A stretch of 64,000 nucleotides of DNA from a virus (taxonomy: Duplodnaviria; Caudoviricetes): positions 484 through 64,483 of IMG/VR virus record IMGVR_UViG_2821032209_000001; one strand, 5' to 3'. The notes under the pieces are model-generated. The model was not told the DNA's origin and ran no database searches. It saw only the letters and a list, made by a program, of their open reading frames with translations. How positions within the stretch are numbered: the first letter of the stretch is position 1; every line of letters starts with the position of its first letter. Positions 2,724 to 55,819 of this stretch are shown here, one piece after another. Made by a program: the position numbers and the translations under genes.

Positions 2724-2965
2724 ACCGCCCTCCGCTGCCGACGGCGATTGTCGTTGGCCGGATTACGACGCTGGCGCGGAGCGCCATAACGGAACCGAAC
2801 GCCGGTAATGCGCGCCAGCTCGAAGGCGGTGTCTCGCAGCGTTTCGGCCTCAGTGTGATAACCAAGCGCGCGCACTGCCTTTGAAATCGACAGGACCTGC
2901 GCGGCGGTCGTGCCTTGCTGCTGGAATTCGGCGGCAGTCAGGGTGGGTCTGTGGATTGCAGACAT
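2720..2965 (-). CDS. Hypothetical protein ending PANDNRRRQRRAV
   Basis: ATG at 2965 follows the ACACGAGGAG RBS motif. Confidence 0.65.
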   Translation of the reverse strand: MSAIHRPTLTAAEFQQQGTTAAQVLSISKAVRALGYHTEAETLRDTAFELARITGVRFRYGAPRQRRNPANDNRRRQRRAV

Positions 2966-3074
2966 AGGTGTCTCCTCGTGTTGGTGGGTGCAAAAAGCCG
3001 TGGCGCCAGATGCGCAAGGGATGTCATTCTTGGAGGATCGGGGGCTTAAGCGCCCCGTCGCTATCTTTCGTGCC

Positions 3075-3308
3075 TCATGCCGATAGACCCATCCCAACGC
3101 CGCACACAGCAACGCAAAAGGCTACAACGACCGTCATTTCGACCGCTTCACGGGCCGCATAGCGCAGCCACGGCTGTGGGCGGCCATGCTTCCTCGCCTT
3201 GTAATCAGGGCGGCGCATTGGCTCGACATTGCCTGCAGCGTTATGACCGGCATCGGTCTGCACGTCTGGTTCCAAGTCGGCGAGCAATTCCAAAAGGGCG
3301 CGGTTCAT
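3075..3308 (-). CDS. Small hypothetical protein with a C-terminal hydrophobic segment
   Basis: ORF coupled (ATGA) to the upstream gene. Confidence 0.5.
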   Translation of the reverse strand: MNRALLELLADLEPDVQTDAGHNAAGNVEPMRRPDYKARKHGRPQPWLRYAAREAVEMTVVVAFCVAVCGVGMGLSA

Positions 3309-3631
3309 GCTGCAGCCCTCCGGTCTTTTGCCGGTACGTTGTCGTTCGCGACAGGCTCAAGGTAGTAAAAGCCCTGATTGCCGCGTCCGCAGCCTTGTTT
3401 TGGAATTGTCCATCCGTGGGATGGCAGCATCTTGCGCAGGCCAACCATAGTTGTTCTGATTACACCGACCGCGTTTTCTGGGCCGCCATTTGGATCAAAT
3501 GCATAAACGTTATCGACGAGATCGCGCATGTGCATGCGGCGAGGGTAAACGTCGGACAGGGCCTCTATGATTGCCAGTTCGGTGCGTCGGAAATGGACTG
3601 CGCCCAATTCCTCATAGGGATCGCGCTCCAT
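3305..3631 (-). CDS. Winged-helix (OmpR/PhoB C-terminal-like) DNA-binding protein
   Basis: TELAIIEAL...RDLVDNVY...NAVGVIRTTMVGLRKML...GFYYL pattern; GGAGG RBS; ends ANDNVPAKDRRAAA. Confidence 0.6.
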   Translation of the reverse strand: MERDPYEELGAVHFRRTELAIIEALSDVYPRRMHMRDLVDNVYAFDPNGGPENAVGVIRTTMVGLRKMLPSHGWTIPKQGCGRGNQGFYYLEPVANDNVPAKDRRAAA

Positions 3632-3632
3632 T

Positions 3633-3899
3633 TTAAGCAGCCTCCGCCAGCTCAACTGGAGCACAGCAAGCCACTGCGCCGCTCGTCTGGAAAACTTCGA
3701 ACGTCTCGCCGGGGCACAGGGCAGCGAGGCGCGTCGCCTCGGCCAAGGCCTGCTCAAACGAGCCGTGTTCGTATGGCATGGTGGTGAAGACGCCAACGCG
3801 GCCAGTCTTCTTGCCGCGGCGGAATACAAAGAATCCGCCGCCGATGATTTCATTCGGGCGAGGCTTCGAGCTTCTTCTTCTCGGTGCTTTTGCTGACAT
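3633..3899 (-). CDS. Hypothetical protein, first gene of the leftward early operon
   Basis: Start follows ACACGAGGAG; 88-aa ORF. Confidence 0.65.
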   Translation of the reverse strand: MSAKAPRRRSSKPRPNEIIGGGFFVFRRGKKTGRVGVFTTMPYEHGSFEQALAEATRLAALCPGETFEVFQTSGAVACCAPVELAEAA

Positions 3900-3976
3900 G
3901 TGAGTTTCTCCTCGTGTTTTGGTCGGTGGGCCAGCAGATCAAGCTGGTGAGGCTGTCTTCGTGCTGTGCTGTCATC

Positions 3977-53063: not shown

Positions 53064-53209
53064 AAGTTCCGCCCCCGGTCGTTTAGTCGATAATAAATGC
53101 TGTTATGCCATTTTAGGATGGTTTTGAAACCCACAATATCGAGGTGAGTGAAGTAATCCAATTCAATATATGATCGCGATAAGCGTTAGTTTGATAGCGA
53201 GTGAGTTTC

Positions 53210-53241
53210 TCCATTAACACCACATTTATCGAGACATTCCA
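53210..53241 (+). repeat. 32-bp promoter-region repeat, copy 2 (CtrA-box-like core)
   Basis: TCCATTAACACCACATTTATCGAGACATTCCA. Confidence 0.8.
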
Positions 53242-53295
53242 TCCTTCCTTCTGCGCCGCTCACCACGGCCACCAAACCACACACGAGGAGACTGT

Positions 53296-53610
53296 ATGTC
53301 CAATGACAGACAGGGCGCGGGTGCGCCCATCGTTGTTGATGTCGCTCTGGCGATGAAGCAACTGGAAGAAAACCCTGACTTGGCTGCCAAGATGAACGAA
53401 CTCGCGTTCGGACCGTTCGCGGCGAGACAGCTTGCTGCGCGCGATGAGCTTATTGAGGATCTCGTTGAAGCTGTGCAGATGTTCTCTGACAACGCAAAAG
53501 AGGCGGGTGATCTGTTTGAAGACGGTCGCAACTCAGAAGCGTGGGAATGGCTGCACACCGCAAGCATCAAAGCCAAAGCGATCCTCGCAAAAGCACGAGG
53601 TGAATCATGA
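53296..53610 (+). CDS. Hypothetical phage protein
   Basis: ACACGAGGAG RBS; AKAILAKARGE ending. Confidence 0.7.
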   Translation: MSNDRQGAGAPIVVDVALAMKQLEENPDLAAKMNELAFGPFAARQLAARDELIEDLVEAVQMFSDNAKEAGDLFEDGRNSEAWEWLHTASIKAKAILAKARGES

Positions 53611-53825
53611 GCACAAGCCATGGAGGCCCGGCCTTTCCATCCACGGTAGAAGCCGGTGAGGATCGCTTTGGTAACAAGTCTCATGTCTTTTATCGAGGCA
53701 TGACGCTGCGCGATTACTTTGCGGGGCAGGCGTTGGCCAGTTGGCCAATTACGGATCATAGCACCGATCTAGCCAGTAAATGCTACGCGCTCGCCGACGC
53801 CATGCTTGCGGCAAGAGGACACTAG
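53607..53825 (+). CDS. Conserved small phage protein (GGPAFP...GMTLRDYFA family)
   Basis: GGPAFP, GMTLRDYFAGQAL, CYALADAMLAAR. Confidence 0.8.
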   Translation: MSTSHGGPAFPSTVEAGEDRFGNKSHVFYRGMTLRDYFAGQALASWPITDHSTDLASKCYALADAMLAARGH

Positions 53826-55067
53826 ATGAAGCTTTCACACGAAGAACTCCTGCGGCGCGCCGAGGCTTACCGTGAGCACGGCACGCTGGTTAAGGCTGCC
53901 GCTGCGCTCGGCATAAAGAAGTCGGCGTTCCACGAGAGCATCAAGCGGGCGGCGGAGATTGGGCTGTTGGGGCCGGCACCGACGCTGCCCGGTTATGCGA
54001 TCAAAAGCCTGACCGAGACGCCGAACGGCACATATATGCGCCAGATGAAAGAGGCTGGCGACAAGTGGCGGGTACCGGAGGGACATGCTGTACGCGGCGT
54101 GTCAGCGCTGATTGACGCGGAAGGCCGCATCATCCAGCAATGGCAGAAGACGGCTGTTGAGCGCGAGCCCGAAGATTATATAAAGCGGCTAAAGGCTGCG
54201 ATGGCCGACTATGAGCCCGCTACGACCACATCTATGCCGTTCGTTTCCGACGCTGATCTATTGACGCTCACGCCGTTGGCCGATTGGCATATCGGTTTGA
54301 GAGCATGGGCAGGCGACACGGGAACAAATTGGGATTTGGCAATCGCGGAACGAGTCATCGGGCAGGGCATCGAGGATGCTGTTGCTCGCTCGCCAGCCTC
54401 TGCCCACGCTATCGTGCTGGGCGGGGGTGATTTACTCCACTCAGATTCCAACGAGAACAAAACGGCCCGGTCCGGCAACGCGCTTGATGTTGATGGCCGT
54501 TACGACAAGTGCATTGACGTTGCCGGGCGGCTGGTTGTCAAAACCATAGACGCCAACCTGCGACGGCACCGGCACGTCACTGTTCGCATCCTAAAAGGCA
54601 ATCACGACGAGCATTCCAGCGTAGCTGTCGCCTACTTCCTTAAAGGCCACTACCGCAACGAACCGCGTGTGACCGTCGATACCGATGCAAGCCTCTTTTT
54701 TTGGCATCGTTTCGGCAAGGTGATGATTGGCGCGACGCATGGCCACGAAGCCAAGATCGCCAACATGCCGTCCATTATGGCTCATCGGCGCGCAGAGGAT
54801 TGGGGCGCGACCCTCTTCCGATACGTTCATGGGTTTCATCTGCATCACTCGGCGAAGTATGCGACTGAAGGCGGCGGATGCATTTCCGAGGTCCATCAGA
54901 CCCCGACGCCGCAAGATGCGTGGCATTGGGGGTCTGGCTACCTGTCCGGGCGGTCAATTCAGTCAATTACCTACCATAGGGACTATGGCGAAATTAGCCG
55001 TGTAAGGGTGGCTATGGTTGATGGCGGGCCGATTGCGGCAAACGATGATGTAAGGGTAGCAGCATGA
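53826..55067 (+). CDS. Calcineurin-like metallophosphoesterase with an N-terminal HTH
   Basis: DWHIG, GGDLLH, GNHD, HGH, GFHLHH motifs. Confidence 0.85.
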   Translation: MKLSHEELLRRAEAYREHGTLVKAAAALGIKKSAFHESIKRAAEIGLLGPAPTLPGYAIKSLTETPNGTYMRQMKEAGDKWRVPEGHAVRGVSALIDAEGRIIQQWQKTAVEREPEDYIKRLKAAMADYEPATTTSMPFVSDADLLTLTPLADWHIGLRAWAGDTGTNWDLAIAERVIGQGIEDAVARSPASAHAIVLGGGDLLHSDSNENKTARSGNALDVDGRYDKCIDVAGRLVVKTIDANLRRHRHVTVRILKGNHDEHSSVAVAYFLKGHYRNEPRVTVDTDASLFFWHRFGKVMIGATHGHEAKIANMPSIMAHRRAEDWGATLFRYVHGFHLHHSAKYATEGGGCISEVHQTPTPQDAWHWGSGYLSGRSIQSITYHRDYGEISRVRVAMVDGGPIAANDDVRVAA

Positions 55068-55819
55068 TTTGCACCGTCGAAGGATGCGAAAAGAGGGCGA
55101 GTTGGGGTGACCTTTGCAGCGGCCACGGCCACAGGCTTAAGAGGTACGGATCTCCAACAGGAAAGCCCGCACCTAAAGTTCTTGGCGTCTGCGCCGTTGA
55201 TGGGTGCGGAGGGAAGCTGGCGGGCGCGGGATATTGTCGAAAGCACTACAAGAGATTCCGCGCTCACGGCGACCCTCTTGGTGGCGGGATCGATTATGGT
55301 TCTGCCAACGAGTTTGTGGTTGATTCTGCCAATTCGGAAGAGAAGATCGAGTGCATTATATGGCCGTTTGGCAAATCCAAGGACGGGTACGGTCGCGTTA
55401 ATGTCGGGGGTACGCCCAAGGGCGCTCATGTCGCGGTAGCTGAGCTTGCCCATGGCCCGAAGCCCACTGCAAAGCACGAATGCTGCCATTCGTGCGGGAA
55501 TGGGCACCTTGGCTGCGTCAACCCTGCCCACATGTATTGGGGAACGCGAAAGGAAAATGTAGCCGATGCGATTGCACATGGAACTTCATACACGCTCCAT
55601 GTGCCGATCGGGGAGGCGCACCACTGCGCGAAATACGATGACGCAACAATAGATATTGCTATGCGGAGAATACAAAGTGGAGAGCGCCCGTCCTCGGTTG
55701 CGAGGTCATTGGGTATATCTGCGTCTTACATTTATAGCTTGTCTAGCGGTAAATCCAAGCGCGCTCAGGCTTGGCTTGCCGCGAATGATAATGTGGCGAG
55801 CGAGAGAAGGGTGGCTTGA
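55064..55819 (+). CDS. Free-standing HNH endonuclease
   Basis: C-x4-C...C-x2-H repeats; CCHSCGNGHLGCVNPAHMYWGTRKENVAD; C-terminal HTH. Confidence 0.85.
   Translation: MICTVEGCEKRASWGDLCSGHGHRLKRYGSPTGKPAPKVLGVCAVDGCGGKLAGAGYCRKHYKRFRAHGDPLGGGIDYGSANEFVVDSANSEEKIECIIWPFGKSKDGYGRVNVGGTPKGAHVAVAELAHGPKPTAKHECCHSCGNGHLGCVNPAHMYWGTRKENVADAIAHGTSYTLHVPIGEAHHCAKYDDATIDIAMRRIQSGERPSSVARSLGISASYIYSLSSGKSKRAQAWLAANDNVASERRVA

Follow-up and report, generated by a model that had tools for sequence, protein, structure and literature searches.

A tag-like tetrapeptide in the proteins of 16-3-like phages probably ties its carriers to the host SspB-ClpXP protease

We find that in the proteins of a phage of the class Caudoviricetes, represented by IMG/VR record IMGVR_UViG_2821032209_000001, the tetrapeptide Ala-Asn-Asp-Asn (ANDN) is under selection as a short linear peptide motif, far beyond chance. 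The window, that is the whole stretch of DNA analysed, is 64,000 nucleotides long (positions 484 to 64,483) and covers nearly all of this 64,483-bp provirus record. Mimicry of the tag that the host's transfer-messenger RNA (tmRNA) encodes is a well-supported reading of these motifs, and a link through the adaptor SspB to the protease ClpXP offers the most economical, albeit unproven, mechanism. Hard-coded ANDN probably ties its carriers to the host SspB-ClpXP protease; we hold it somewhat probable that the ANDN tails are selected tag mimics docking on SspB, and that ClpXP turns over those carriers which end in Ala-Ala.

Simple longest-ORF gene calls gave 92 open reading frames (ORFs) of at least 60 residues, 19,647 residues in total, in which ANDN is observed 13 times against 0.177 expected from composition (Poisson P ~2e-20). 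It ranks first among all tetrapeptides in the window and is followed by PAND and AAND, which rank high because both overlap it; in 2000 within-protein shuffles it occurs 0.17 times on average and 3 times at most. A preliminary description of this DNA, made from its letters, had proposed tag mimics and had named a background frequency of ANDN as the outcome that would speak against them; the frequency found lies far above both composition and shuffles.

A question remains, is it the peptide or the underlying DNA that is selected? The DNA pattern GCNAAYGAYAAY has 13 matches, counting both strands, and 13/13 are in frame on the coding strand of a gene. In the related Sinorhizobium phage NV1.1.1, gene calls place 19 of 20 matches in frame, and the 20th is in frame in an annotated coding sequence (2762-3007). 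An operator, a methylation site, a hotspot or a packaging or Chi-like signal that happens to translate as ANDN, or else chance and composition, could account for a 12-nucleotide pattern that is strongly enriched and always lies on the transcribed strand, and one tail copy has indeed spread as DNA together with an HNH gene. A regulatory, methylation or recombination signal would, however, ignore the reading frame, and the frame test effectively refutes this explanation. Moreover, all three wobble positions and the third base of the alanine codon vary (Ala: GCC 5, GCG 7, GCT 1; first Asn: AAC 5, AAT 8; Asp: GAC 10, GAT 3; second Asn: AAC 6, AAT 7), and a comparison of the flanks of non-homologous copies revealed no similarity past the motif. 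We regard a DNA signal or chance as having a negligible probability, and operators, methylation sites and recombination sites were rejected as candidates on the frame (13/13 in the window and, with the annotated coding sequence, 20/20 in NV1.1.1) and on the varying wobble positions. The mixed synonymous codons and the in-frame matches bear out the earlier argument for selection at the level of the peptide.

The 13 exact copies lie in 12 window proteins and are joined by three one-residue variants (SNDN at 6996, GNDN at 16290 and ANDD at 55038), so that ANDN or a near-variant occurs in 14 unrelated non-virion proteins. All 15 sites listed in the preliminary description are present where it had placed them. 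A six-frame scan for [AGS]ND[ND] yields 17 matches, 16 within called genes and one outside (GNDD, 60131, minus strand). The sites are as follows (positions in the window).

2720..2758, minus strand (ANDN 2747-2758): tail PANDNRRRQRRAV-stop of a 130-residue protein without family
3305..3349, minus strand (ANDN 3338-3349): tag-like tail ANDNVPAKDRRAAA-stop of a 241-residue protein without family, with 10 residues after ANDN and an -AA end
6996..7007, plus strand: variant SNDN at residue 201 of a 274-residue protein ending VTVAA (stop 7218-7220)
8461..8493, plus strand: tail ANDNGRQEAA-stop of an AAA_24/Sak4-like protein, with the motif (residue 272) past the Pfam domain, whose last residue is 248
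9253..9294, plus strand: tail ANDNTNPMMIGKT-stop of a 265-residue protein whose 16-3 homologue is annotated as endonuclease VII
10255..10266, plus strand: ANDN at residue 158 of a DUF669 protein, in an Ala/Pro-rich tail past the domain (17-125)
11145..11156, plus strand: ANDN at residue 244 of a 281-residue nucleotidyltransferase-like protein ending WPLAA; its phrog_1614 match is weak
16266..16301, plus strand: double motif ANDNVPEAGNDN in the C-terminal tail of a superfamily 2 (SF2) helicase, residues 555-566 of 589
18462..18515, plus strand: tag-like tail ANDNQPPLQARLFGDAA-stop of an N6_N4 DNA methyltransferase
20396..20446, plus strand: tail ANDNYLSRPDVDLLAS-stop of a C5 DNA methyltransferase
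24889..24900, plus strand: ANDN at residue 50 of the phrog_36072 protein (315 residues by longest ORF)
25645..25689, plus strand: tag-like tail ANDNLAAAIKKYAA-stop of the phrog_36072 protein
26498..26509, plus strand: ANDN at residue 13 of a 291-residue HNH endonuclease (HNH domain 229-285)
55038..55067, plus strand: variant tail ANDDVRVAA-stop of an exonuclease (phrog_704)
55781..55819, plus strand: tail ANDNVASERRVA-stop of an HNH_3 protein

As previously claimed, the carriers are unrelated to one another; they include AAA_24/Sak4, DUF669 and SF2 helicase proteins, N6_N4 and C5 methyltransferases, two HNH proteins, the phrog_704 exonuclease and others without family. The motifs all lie outside the Pfam matches of their proteins, and their flanks are only slightly less hydrophobic than the proteome (0.25 vs 0.31). 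None of the 13 copies falls in the virion module (27434-47513), which holds 6,369 of the 19,647 residues (chance P = 0.006). The reported absence of ANDN from head and tail genes thus holds within the window and fails across related phages: the portal protein of phage 16-3 (L082:2202-3392) ends ANDNQEDEAEAA, hence a virion protein has the mimic too, and the 16-3 and NV1.1.1 tape-measure proteins contain one ANDN each (ANDD at residue 4, ANDN at residue 47). Given these portal and tape-measure copies, avoidance of the virion module is a tendency, not a rule.

The head genes of the window resemble those of the Sinorhizobium phages NV1.1.1, AP-16-3 and 16-3. Relatives of the phrog_36072 protein (24742-25689), at 69-88% identity, occur in prophages of Brucella pseudintermedia, Falsochrobactrum, Ochrobactrum chromiisoli and Brucella daejeonensis, and further relatives in 17 viral contigs. 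The phage is temperate and, because these relatives reside in Brucella/Ochrobactrum-type prophages, its host is most likely a member of the Brucella/Ochrobactrum group, with which the GC content of the window (52-58%) is compatible. A 4.4-Mb B. pseudintermedia genome that carries a related prophage (G001) was used as the host-type reference. In 4/4 genomes carrying related prophages, the two-piece tmRNA genes detected by ARAGORN encode the tag ANDNKAQGYALAA, and the comparison with the host ssrA tag that had been called for shows ANDN to be its first four encoded residues in all four. Another genome of the host's order encodes ANDNYAEARLAA. The Caulobacter tag is printed as AANDNFAEEFAVAA in the methods of PMC9393093, in agreement with the form quoted in the preliminary description. 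Judged by the tags compared, ANDN is the invariant head of alphaproteobacterial tags.

The host also has the machinery that reads such a tag. SspB is present in G001 and in 40/41 sampled genomes of the order; the host protein matches the solved Caulobacter SspB entries 2qas and 2qaz (E 1e-33) and also resembles a solved Agrobacterium protein. In host-type SspB, compared across 29 genomes, the linker varies and the C-terminal peptide ...LDAFRKK is conserved, and a host ClpX with its zinc-finger N domain is present. In G001, ssrA lies ~0.3-2.5 kb from sspB (C1:1690081-1693354), and in eight or more further genomes of the order (loci L049-L077) a match to the ANDN pattern lies a few hundred bases from an sspB match. 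No phage-encoded SspB was found in the window, nor was a phage-encoded tmRNA found. True trans-translation tags were rejected as an explanation of the phage copies, since all of them are in frame within ordinary ORFs that have their own stop codons; they are mimics instead.

Could the phage have copied a motif of a host protein rather than the tag? In 118,878 residues of G001 chromosome 1 (20 x 20-kb samples) there is no ANDN. The DNA pattern has 25 matches in the whole of G001 against 17 for a reversed control; eight of the 25 lie in the 52-kb related prophage (C2:639454-691340), two in a prophage remnant and one in ssrA, and the other 14 are out of frame or deep within ordinary ORFs, none of them near the C-terminus of a real ORF. 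A host protein motif was therefore rejected as the model (0/14 matches outside prophages and ssrA form the C-terminal tail of a real ORF), which leaves the tag itself as the only host model for the motif. Among the 150 matches listed of 759 in 41 genomes of the order, seven apparent ANDN-dense clusters were seen, and none is a prophage: they are repeat proteins (YD-type repeat, adhesin-like), scattered matches or the ssrA gene. The excess of matches over the reversed pattern in these 41 genomes was not used, as the dinucleotide content of the control differs. One source of false clusters in such pattern scans is a very long YD-repeat ORF (...DYGYDANDNRL...; L084, G007:C2:1075001-1095000) with three close ANDN matches.

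Likeness to the tag extends beyond its head. For this comparison we pooled the window, phages 16-3 and NV1.1.1 and 21 related loci and removed near-duplicates; some of the related loci are one prophage present in two collections (L004/L021; L006/L023) and are hence non-independent. The native tags have 9 (ANDNKAQGYALAA) and 8 (ANDNYAEARLAA) residues after the head, and 19 of the 29 non-redundant C-terminal tails of the pool have 8-10; the spacing from head to end is thus about native in C-terminal tails, a comparison that does not extend to the N-terminal and internal copies. In the window and NV1.1.1 together, 15/32 motifs are followed by 20 residues or fewer, as against ~10% expected. The motifs thus cluster at protein ends, and roughly half of them are found in C-terminal tails that match the native tag in length and alanine end. 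A terminal alanine is found in 21/29 tails (AA 11, VA 6, CA 3, KA 1), and the middles of the tails are free to vary across the lineage. In a genuinely tagged protein the residue ahead of the tag is the alanine carried by tmRNA; in 56 non-redundant contexts of the pool, the position ahead of ANDN holds Ala 24 times and Pro 19 times, and the second position after it holds Pro 16 times. Proteins ending -AA make up 13/92 in the window, 18/89 in NV1.1.1 and 10/86 in 16-3, compared with 13/428 in a host sample and one or two per genome in five unrelated control phages. Within the window the -AA end associates with ANDN (5/12 of the proteins with the motif vs 8/80 without, Fisher P = 0.012).

The motif recurs throughout the relatives of 16-3. 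Phage 16-3 itself has 14 ANDN, its top tetrapeptide (P 8e-25), NV1.1.1 has 19-20, and each of the 21 related loci has 2-7. In none of the five control phages, which are unrelated to the lineage and share homologous early or capsid genes (Brucella phage Tb, Sphingomonas phage Kharn, Klebsiella phage 6991, Alcaligenes phage CASP1 and the temperate Pseudomonas phage D3), is ANDN above chance; 6991 has one ANDN and one ANDE, the chance level, and CASP1 and D3 have none. Thus the ANDN habit is a trait of the 16-3-like temperate lineage, neither of all phages whose hosts have the same tag nor of temperate phages in general. Within the lineage, the C-terminal ANDN of the phrog_36072 protein is invariant in 13/13 aligned orthologues, and ANDN persists in the methyltransferase, helicase, exonuclease and DUF669 families amid tails that differ in sequence and length. 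Orthologues of the C5 methyltransferase have six different tails, 5-12 residues long after an unchanged ANDN, the DUF669 motif is kept in the NV1.1.1 and 16-3 homologues, and the helicase motif is doubled in all lineage homologues seen, whereas the helicase homologues of Tb and Kharn have no motif. The tail motif of Sak4 is present in the window and absent from the NV1.1.1 and Tb homologues. A conserved core amid diverging flanks, with lineage-specific gain and loss, is the evolution of a short linear motif. The second prophage remnant in G001 (L103, C2:261147-265592) has the same design: C-terminal fragments of an exonuclease and of a portal protein end in ANDN plus eight residues ending AA, and a head maturation protease gene follows.

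How would such a motif act? In E. coli, according to PMC9963277, SspB binds the tag's first seven residues and ClpX binds the C-terminal ALAA. A large screen (PMC10862746) found a terminal Ala-Ala to be critical in ClpXP degrons of the short C-terminal kind and concluded that adaptors are needed by the weaker ones. We propose that the ANDN head docks in the tag-binding groove of host SspB, which would in turn be tethered to ClpX via its conserved C-terminal peptide. A carrier whose C-terminus in addition offers Ala-Ala or a comparably weak ClpX signal would then be an adaptor-dependent ClpXP substrate. In the phage tails an exact head seems to be joined to ends that are for the most part weaker than Leu-Ala-Ala (EAA, DAA, YAA, RVA and the like); exact head plus weakened end is the adaptor-dependent design of engineered tags, and for this reason the C-terminal copies are read as putative natural SspB-dependent ClpXP degrons. 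The N-terminal and linker copies and those of the helicase, ahead of its tip that resembles the single-stranded DNA-binding protein SSB, would serve as SspB tethers only. In this manner the capacity of host SspB-ClpXP may set the amounts of phage nucleases, methyltransferases, helicase and recombination proteins, clearing leaky products in lysogens and timing their turnover after induction.

Several observations weigh against this proposal. Motifs are N-terminal or internal in several proteins, an -AA end is found in no more than 5 of the 12 window proteins that carry exact ANDN, and 8/29 tails of the pool have no terminal alanine (KT, VH, TT, AS, AV, PF). In NV1.1.1 the association between ANDN and -AA does not reach significance (P = 0.08). 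An AlphaFold2 model of the phrog_36072 protein, built with 13 orthologues, is poor (mean pLDDT, the predicted local distance difference test, of 40) and places the C-terminal ANDN within a predicted helix (294-314). Both alphaproteobacterial phages among the controls, Tb and Kharn, are without the motif, and SspB and the tag are near-universal in the order. Some tails, at least the one at 55781, are on the evidence of alignments inherited by insertion and not invented anew. Finally, 9/13 of the -AA ends in the window are formed by GCN-GCA/GCG-TGA overlapping the ATG or GTG of the next gene. The claim that degrons are hard-wired into the early and middle proteome therefore stands in part: peptide selection, identity to the tag head, tail length with an alanine end and the presence of host SspB and ClpX all support it, and yet 'degron' is too strong a word for the whole set, given that 5/12 carriers end in -AA and that some motifs are N-terminal or internal. 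The earlier suggestions that SspB is flooded, or that CtrA is affected, drew no support from the analysis.

The overlap of -AA ends with starts raises the question of whether these endings, taken alone, are largely a by-product of gene junctions (GCA-GCA-TGA, with the next ATG over the stop and downstream of a ribosome-binding site) and not ClpX signals. The penultimate codon is GCA in 6/9 of the overlapping ends, compared with a genome-wide GCA use of 22% for alanine, and translational coupling may on account of the overlaps explain part of the -AA excess. Against this, 4/13 of the ends overlap no start, the excess over host sample and control phages is found in the window, NV1.1.1 and 16-3 alike, and in the window -AA goes together with ANDN. 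Furthermore, closely coupled genes end in -AA in 8/30 cases in the window and in 2/80 in the host sample, and on the rarity in coupled host genes the ending is judged to be selected. The junction explanation is accordingly a possible but doubtful one; we think that the -AA ending is selected and that part of it may also serve translation initiation of the next gene. GCA-GCA-TGA junctions recur at gene ends, for example at 1053/550, 3305, 7217, 21504, 24772 and 55064. The phrog_36072 gene more likely starts from the ATG at 24772, inside such a junction, than from the GTG at 24742.

Restriction to one lineage also fits a phage-encoded reader. The motif could be read by a protein other than SspB, a phage-encoded hub protein of the 16-3 lineage or another host factor that touches the head of the tag, and the outcome would be that the replication and recombination machinery is recruited or assembled, instead of proteolysis. 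Only one phage lineage has the motif, which 0/5 unrelated phages (two of them of alphaproteobacteria) share, although nearly all sampled genomes of the order have SspB; most carriers are DNA-handling enzymes, many motifs come without any C-terminal degron, and the two motifs of the helicase adjoin an SSB-like tip that would itself recruit partners. However, a chance match to the exact four-residue head of the tag, together with an alanine ahead of it, native spacing and an alanine end, is very improbable, no SspB-like gene was found in the phage and no candidate reader was identified. Another reader is in our view unlikely.

The helicase tip deserves mention in its own right. The SF2 helicase ends ...LAEILDDDIPF (16338-16373, plus strand); in its relatives the end is LDDEIPF or LDDEVPF, and in the host SSB (L093:1399-1998) it is ...DLDDEIPF. 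A search with PF00436 found no SSB gene in the phage. It thus seems that the C-terminal tip of SSB has been copied onto the helicase, which would make a second mimic of a host motif in the same tail as the doubled ANDN.

Insertion has likewise shaped one of the tails. The last 45 nucleotides of the HNH_3 gene (55064-55819) match the tail of the exonuclease of the G001 prophage at 39/45 positions. The body of the window exonuclease (53826-55067) aligns with that exonuclease until just before the tail and then closes with a degenerate short copy, ANDDVRVAA. Evidently, as these alignments indicate, insertion of the HNH gene split the body of the exonuclease from its tail, and the HNH frame now runs on into this former tail; from the 39/45 match, the tail at 55781 was captured on this insertion. 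The locus resembles a homing-endonuclease insertion with junction duplication.

Proteolysis of the carriers is not the only use that a phage could make of SspB. The motifs may act as decoys that occupy SspB or ClpXP, protecting other phage or host proteins or blocking the clearance of tagged ones, in which case the carriers need not be degraded. More than a dozen early proteins carry the head, many of them without an -AA end, and the helicase has two. That phages touch this pathway is indicated by Pseudomonas phage pf16, for which PMC5587285 describes an SspB analogue, encoded by the phage, that is proposed to be a competitor of the host SspB. On the other hand, one abundant protein with many repeats would be a simpler sponge, tag-like length and alanine ends (19-21 of 29 tails) are unneeded for titrating SspB, and a full mimic on a portal protein fits the removal of unassembled subunits better. 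We therefore consider jamming quite improbable.

Returning to SspB-dependent turnover, it is conceivable, although we rate it as unlikely, that the shared SspB-ClpXP queue tells the prophage, as a sensor would, about the state of the host. Its early nucleases, methyltransferases, helicase and recombination proteins would compete with tmRNA-tagged host proteins for one adaptor and one protease, and leaky products would be removed in unstressed lysogens. Ribosome stalling or other stress would fill the queue, and the phage proteins, being spared, would accumulate and tip a lysogen or a fresh infection towards the lytic course. Assembly may hide the tail, as on the 16-3 portal, so that only unassembled copies would be destroyed.

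The phage has at least three DNA methyltransferases, Dam-like (547-1053, minus strand), N6_N4 (17781-18515, plus strand) and C5 (18959-20446, plus strand), and beside the Dam-like gene lies a gene for a protein with a Lar-like restriction-alleviation domain (1050-2201, minus strand). A tRNA-Met gene (CAT; 25968-26044, plus strand) lies between the early and the packaging genes, and NV1.1.1 has one at the equivalent place.

If SspB-dependent mimicry is true, a temperate lineage that includes the long-studied rhizobiophage 16-3 cedes the lifetimes of its DNA enzymes to the ribosome-rescue clean-up of the host. It would be the first natural proteome-wide mimicry of the tmRNA tag and a natural counterpart of synthetic adaptor-dependent tags, as well as a clear bacteriophage case of short-motif mimicry; a full-text literature search returned no description of ANDN or of tag mimicry in phage proteins, as far as the partial texts retrieved extend, and the SspB analogue of pf16 came nearest. 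It would offer a simple handle on lysogeny timing and toxicity control, through four residues or sspB, and a natural set of SspB-dependent tags of graded strength for alphaproteobacterial genetics. For annotation, the tails of 'hypothetical' proteins would be functional elements. Should the queue serve as a sensor and the SSB tip of the helicase be a true copy, the 16-3 lineage would systematically copy host peptide motifs.

How do the phage tails compare with known systems? With the native ssrA tag of the SspB/ClpXP pathway they share the ANDN head, a frequent alanine before it, a similar length and an alanine or Ala-Ala end. The native tag, however, is added co-translationally by tmRNA to truncated proteins, whereas the phage copies are hard-coded in full-length genes; the middle of the phage tail is not conserved, and many copies are N-terminal, internal or without Ala-Ala. 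Mimicry of the short linear motifs of host proteins is well documented for eukaryotic viruses. The phage shares with it short host-like peptides at protein ends, their quick gain and loss and divergent flanks; it differs in that the mimic is a bacteriophage and in that what is copied is a quality-control tag encoded by an RNA and not a motif of a host protein. The engineered SspB-dependent tags of synthetic biology, such as 'DAS+4', are man-made, while the phage tails are natural and their dependence on the adaptor is putative. The logic is nonetheless the same (PMC3064785): an intact head, a weakened or varied C-terminal signal and a variable spacer, which in the engineered tags makes degradation adaptor-dependent. 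Gene-encoded SspB/ClpXP substrates such as the cleaved RseA fragment ending VAA (Table 1 of PMC8138137) are likewise hard-coded and bipartite, with an adaptor element and a weak AA-type end. Substrates of the RseA type are single host regulators with an SspB-binding sequence of their own that is not derived from the tag, whereas the phage spreads a tag-derived head over at least a dozen unrelated proteins. The SspB analogue of pf16 (PMC5587285) is likewise a phage's use of, or interference with, the SspB branch; pf16 copies the adaptor, whereas the phage of the window, which has no SspB gene, copies the adaptor's ligand.

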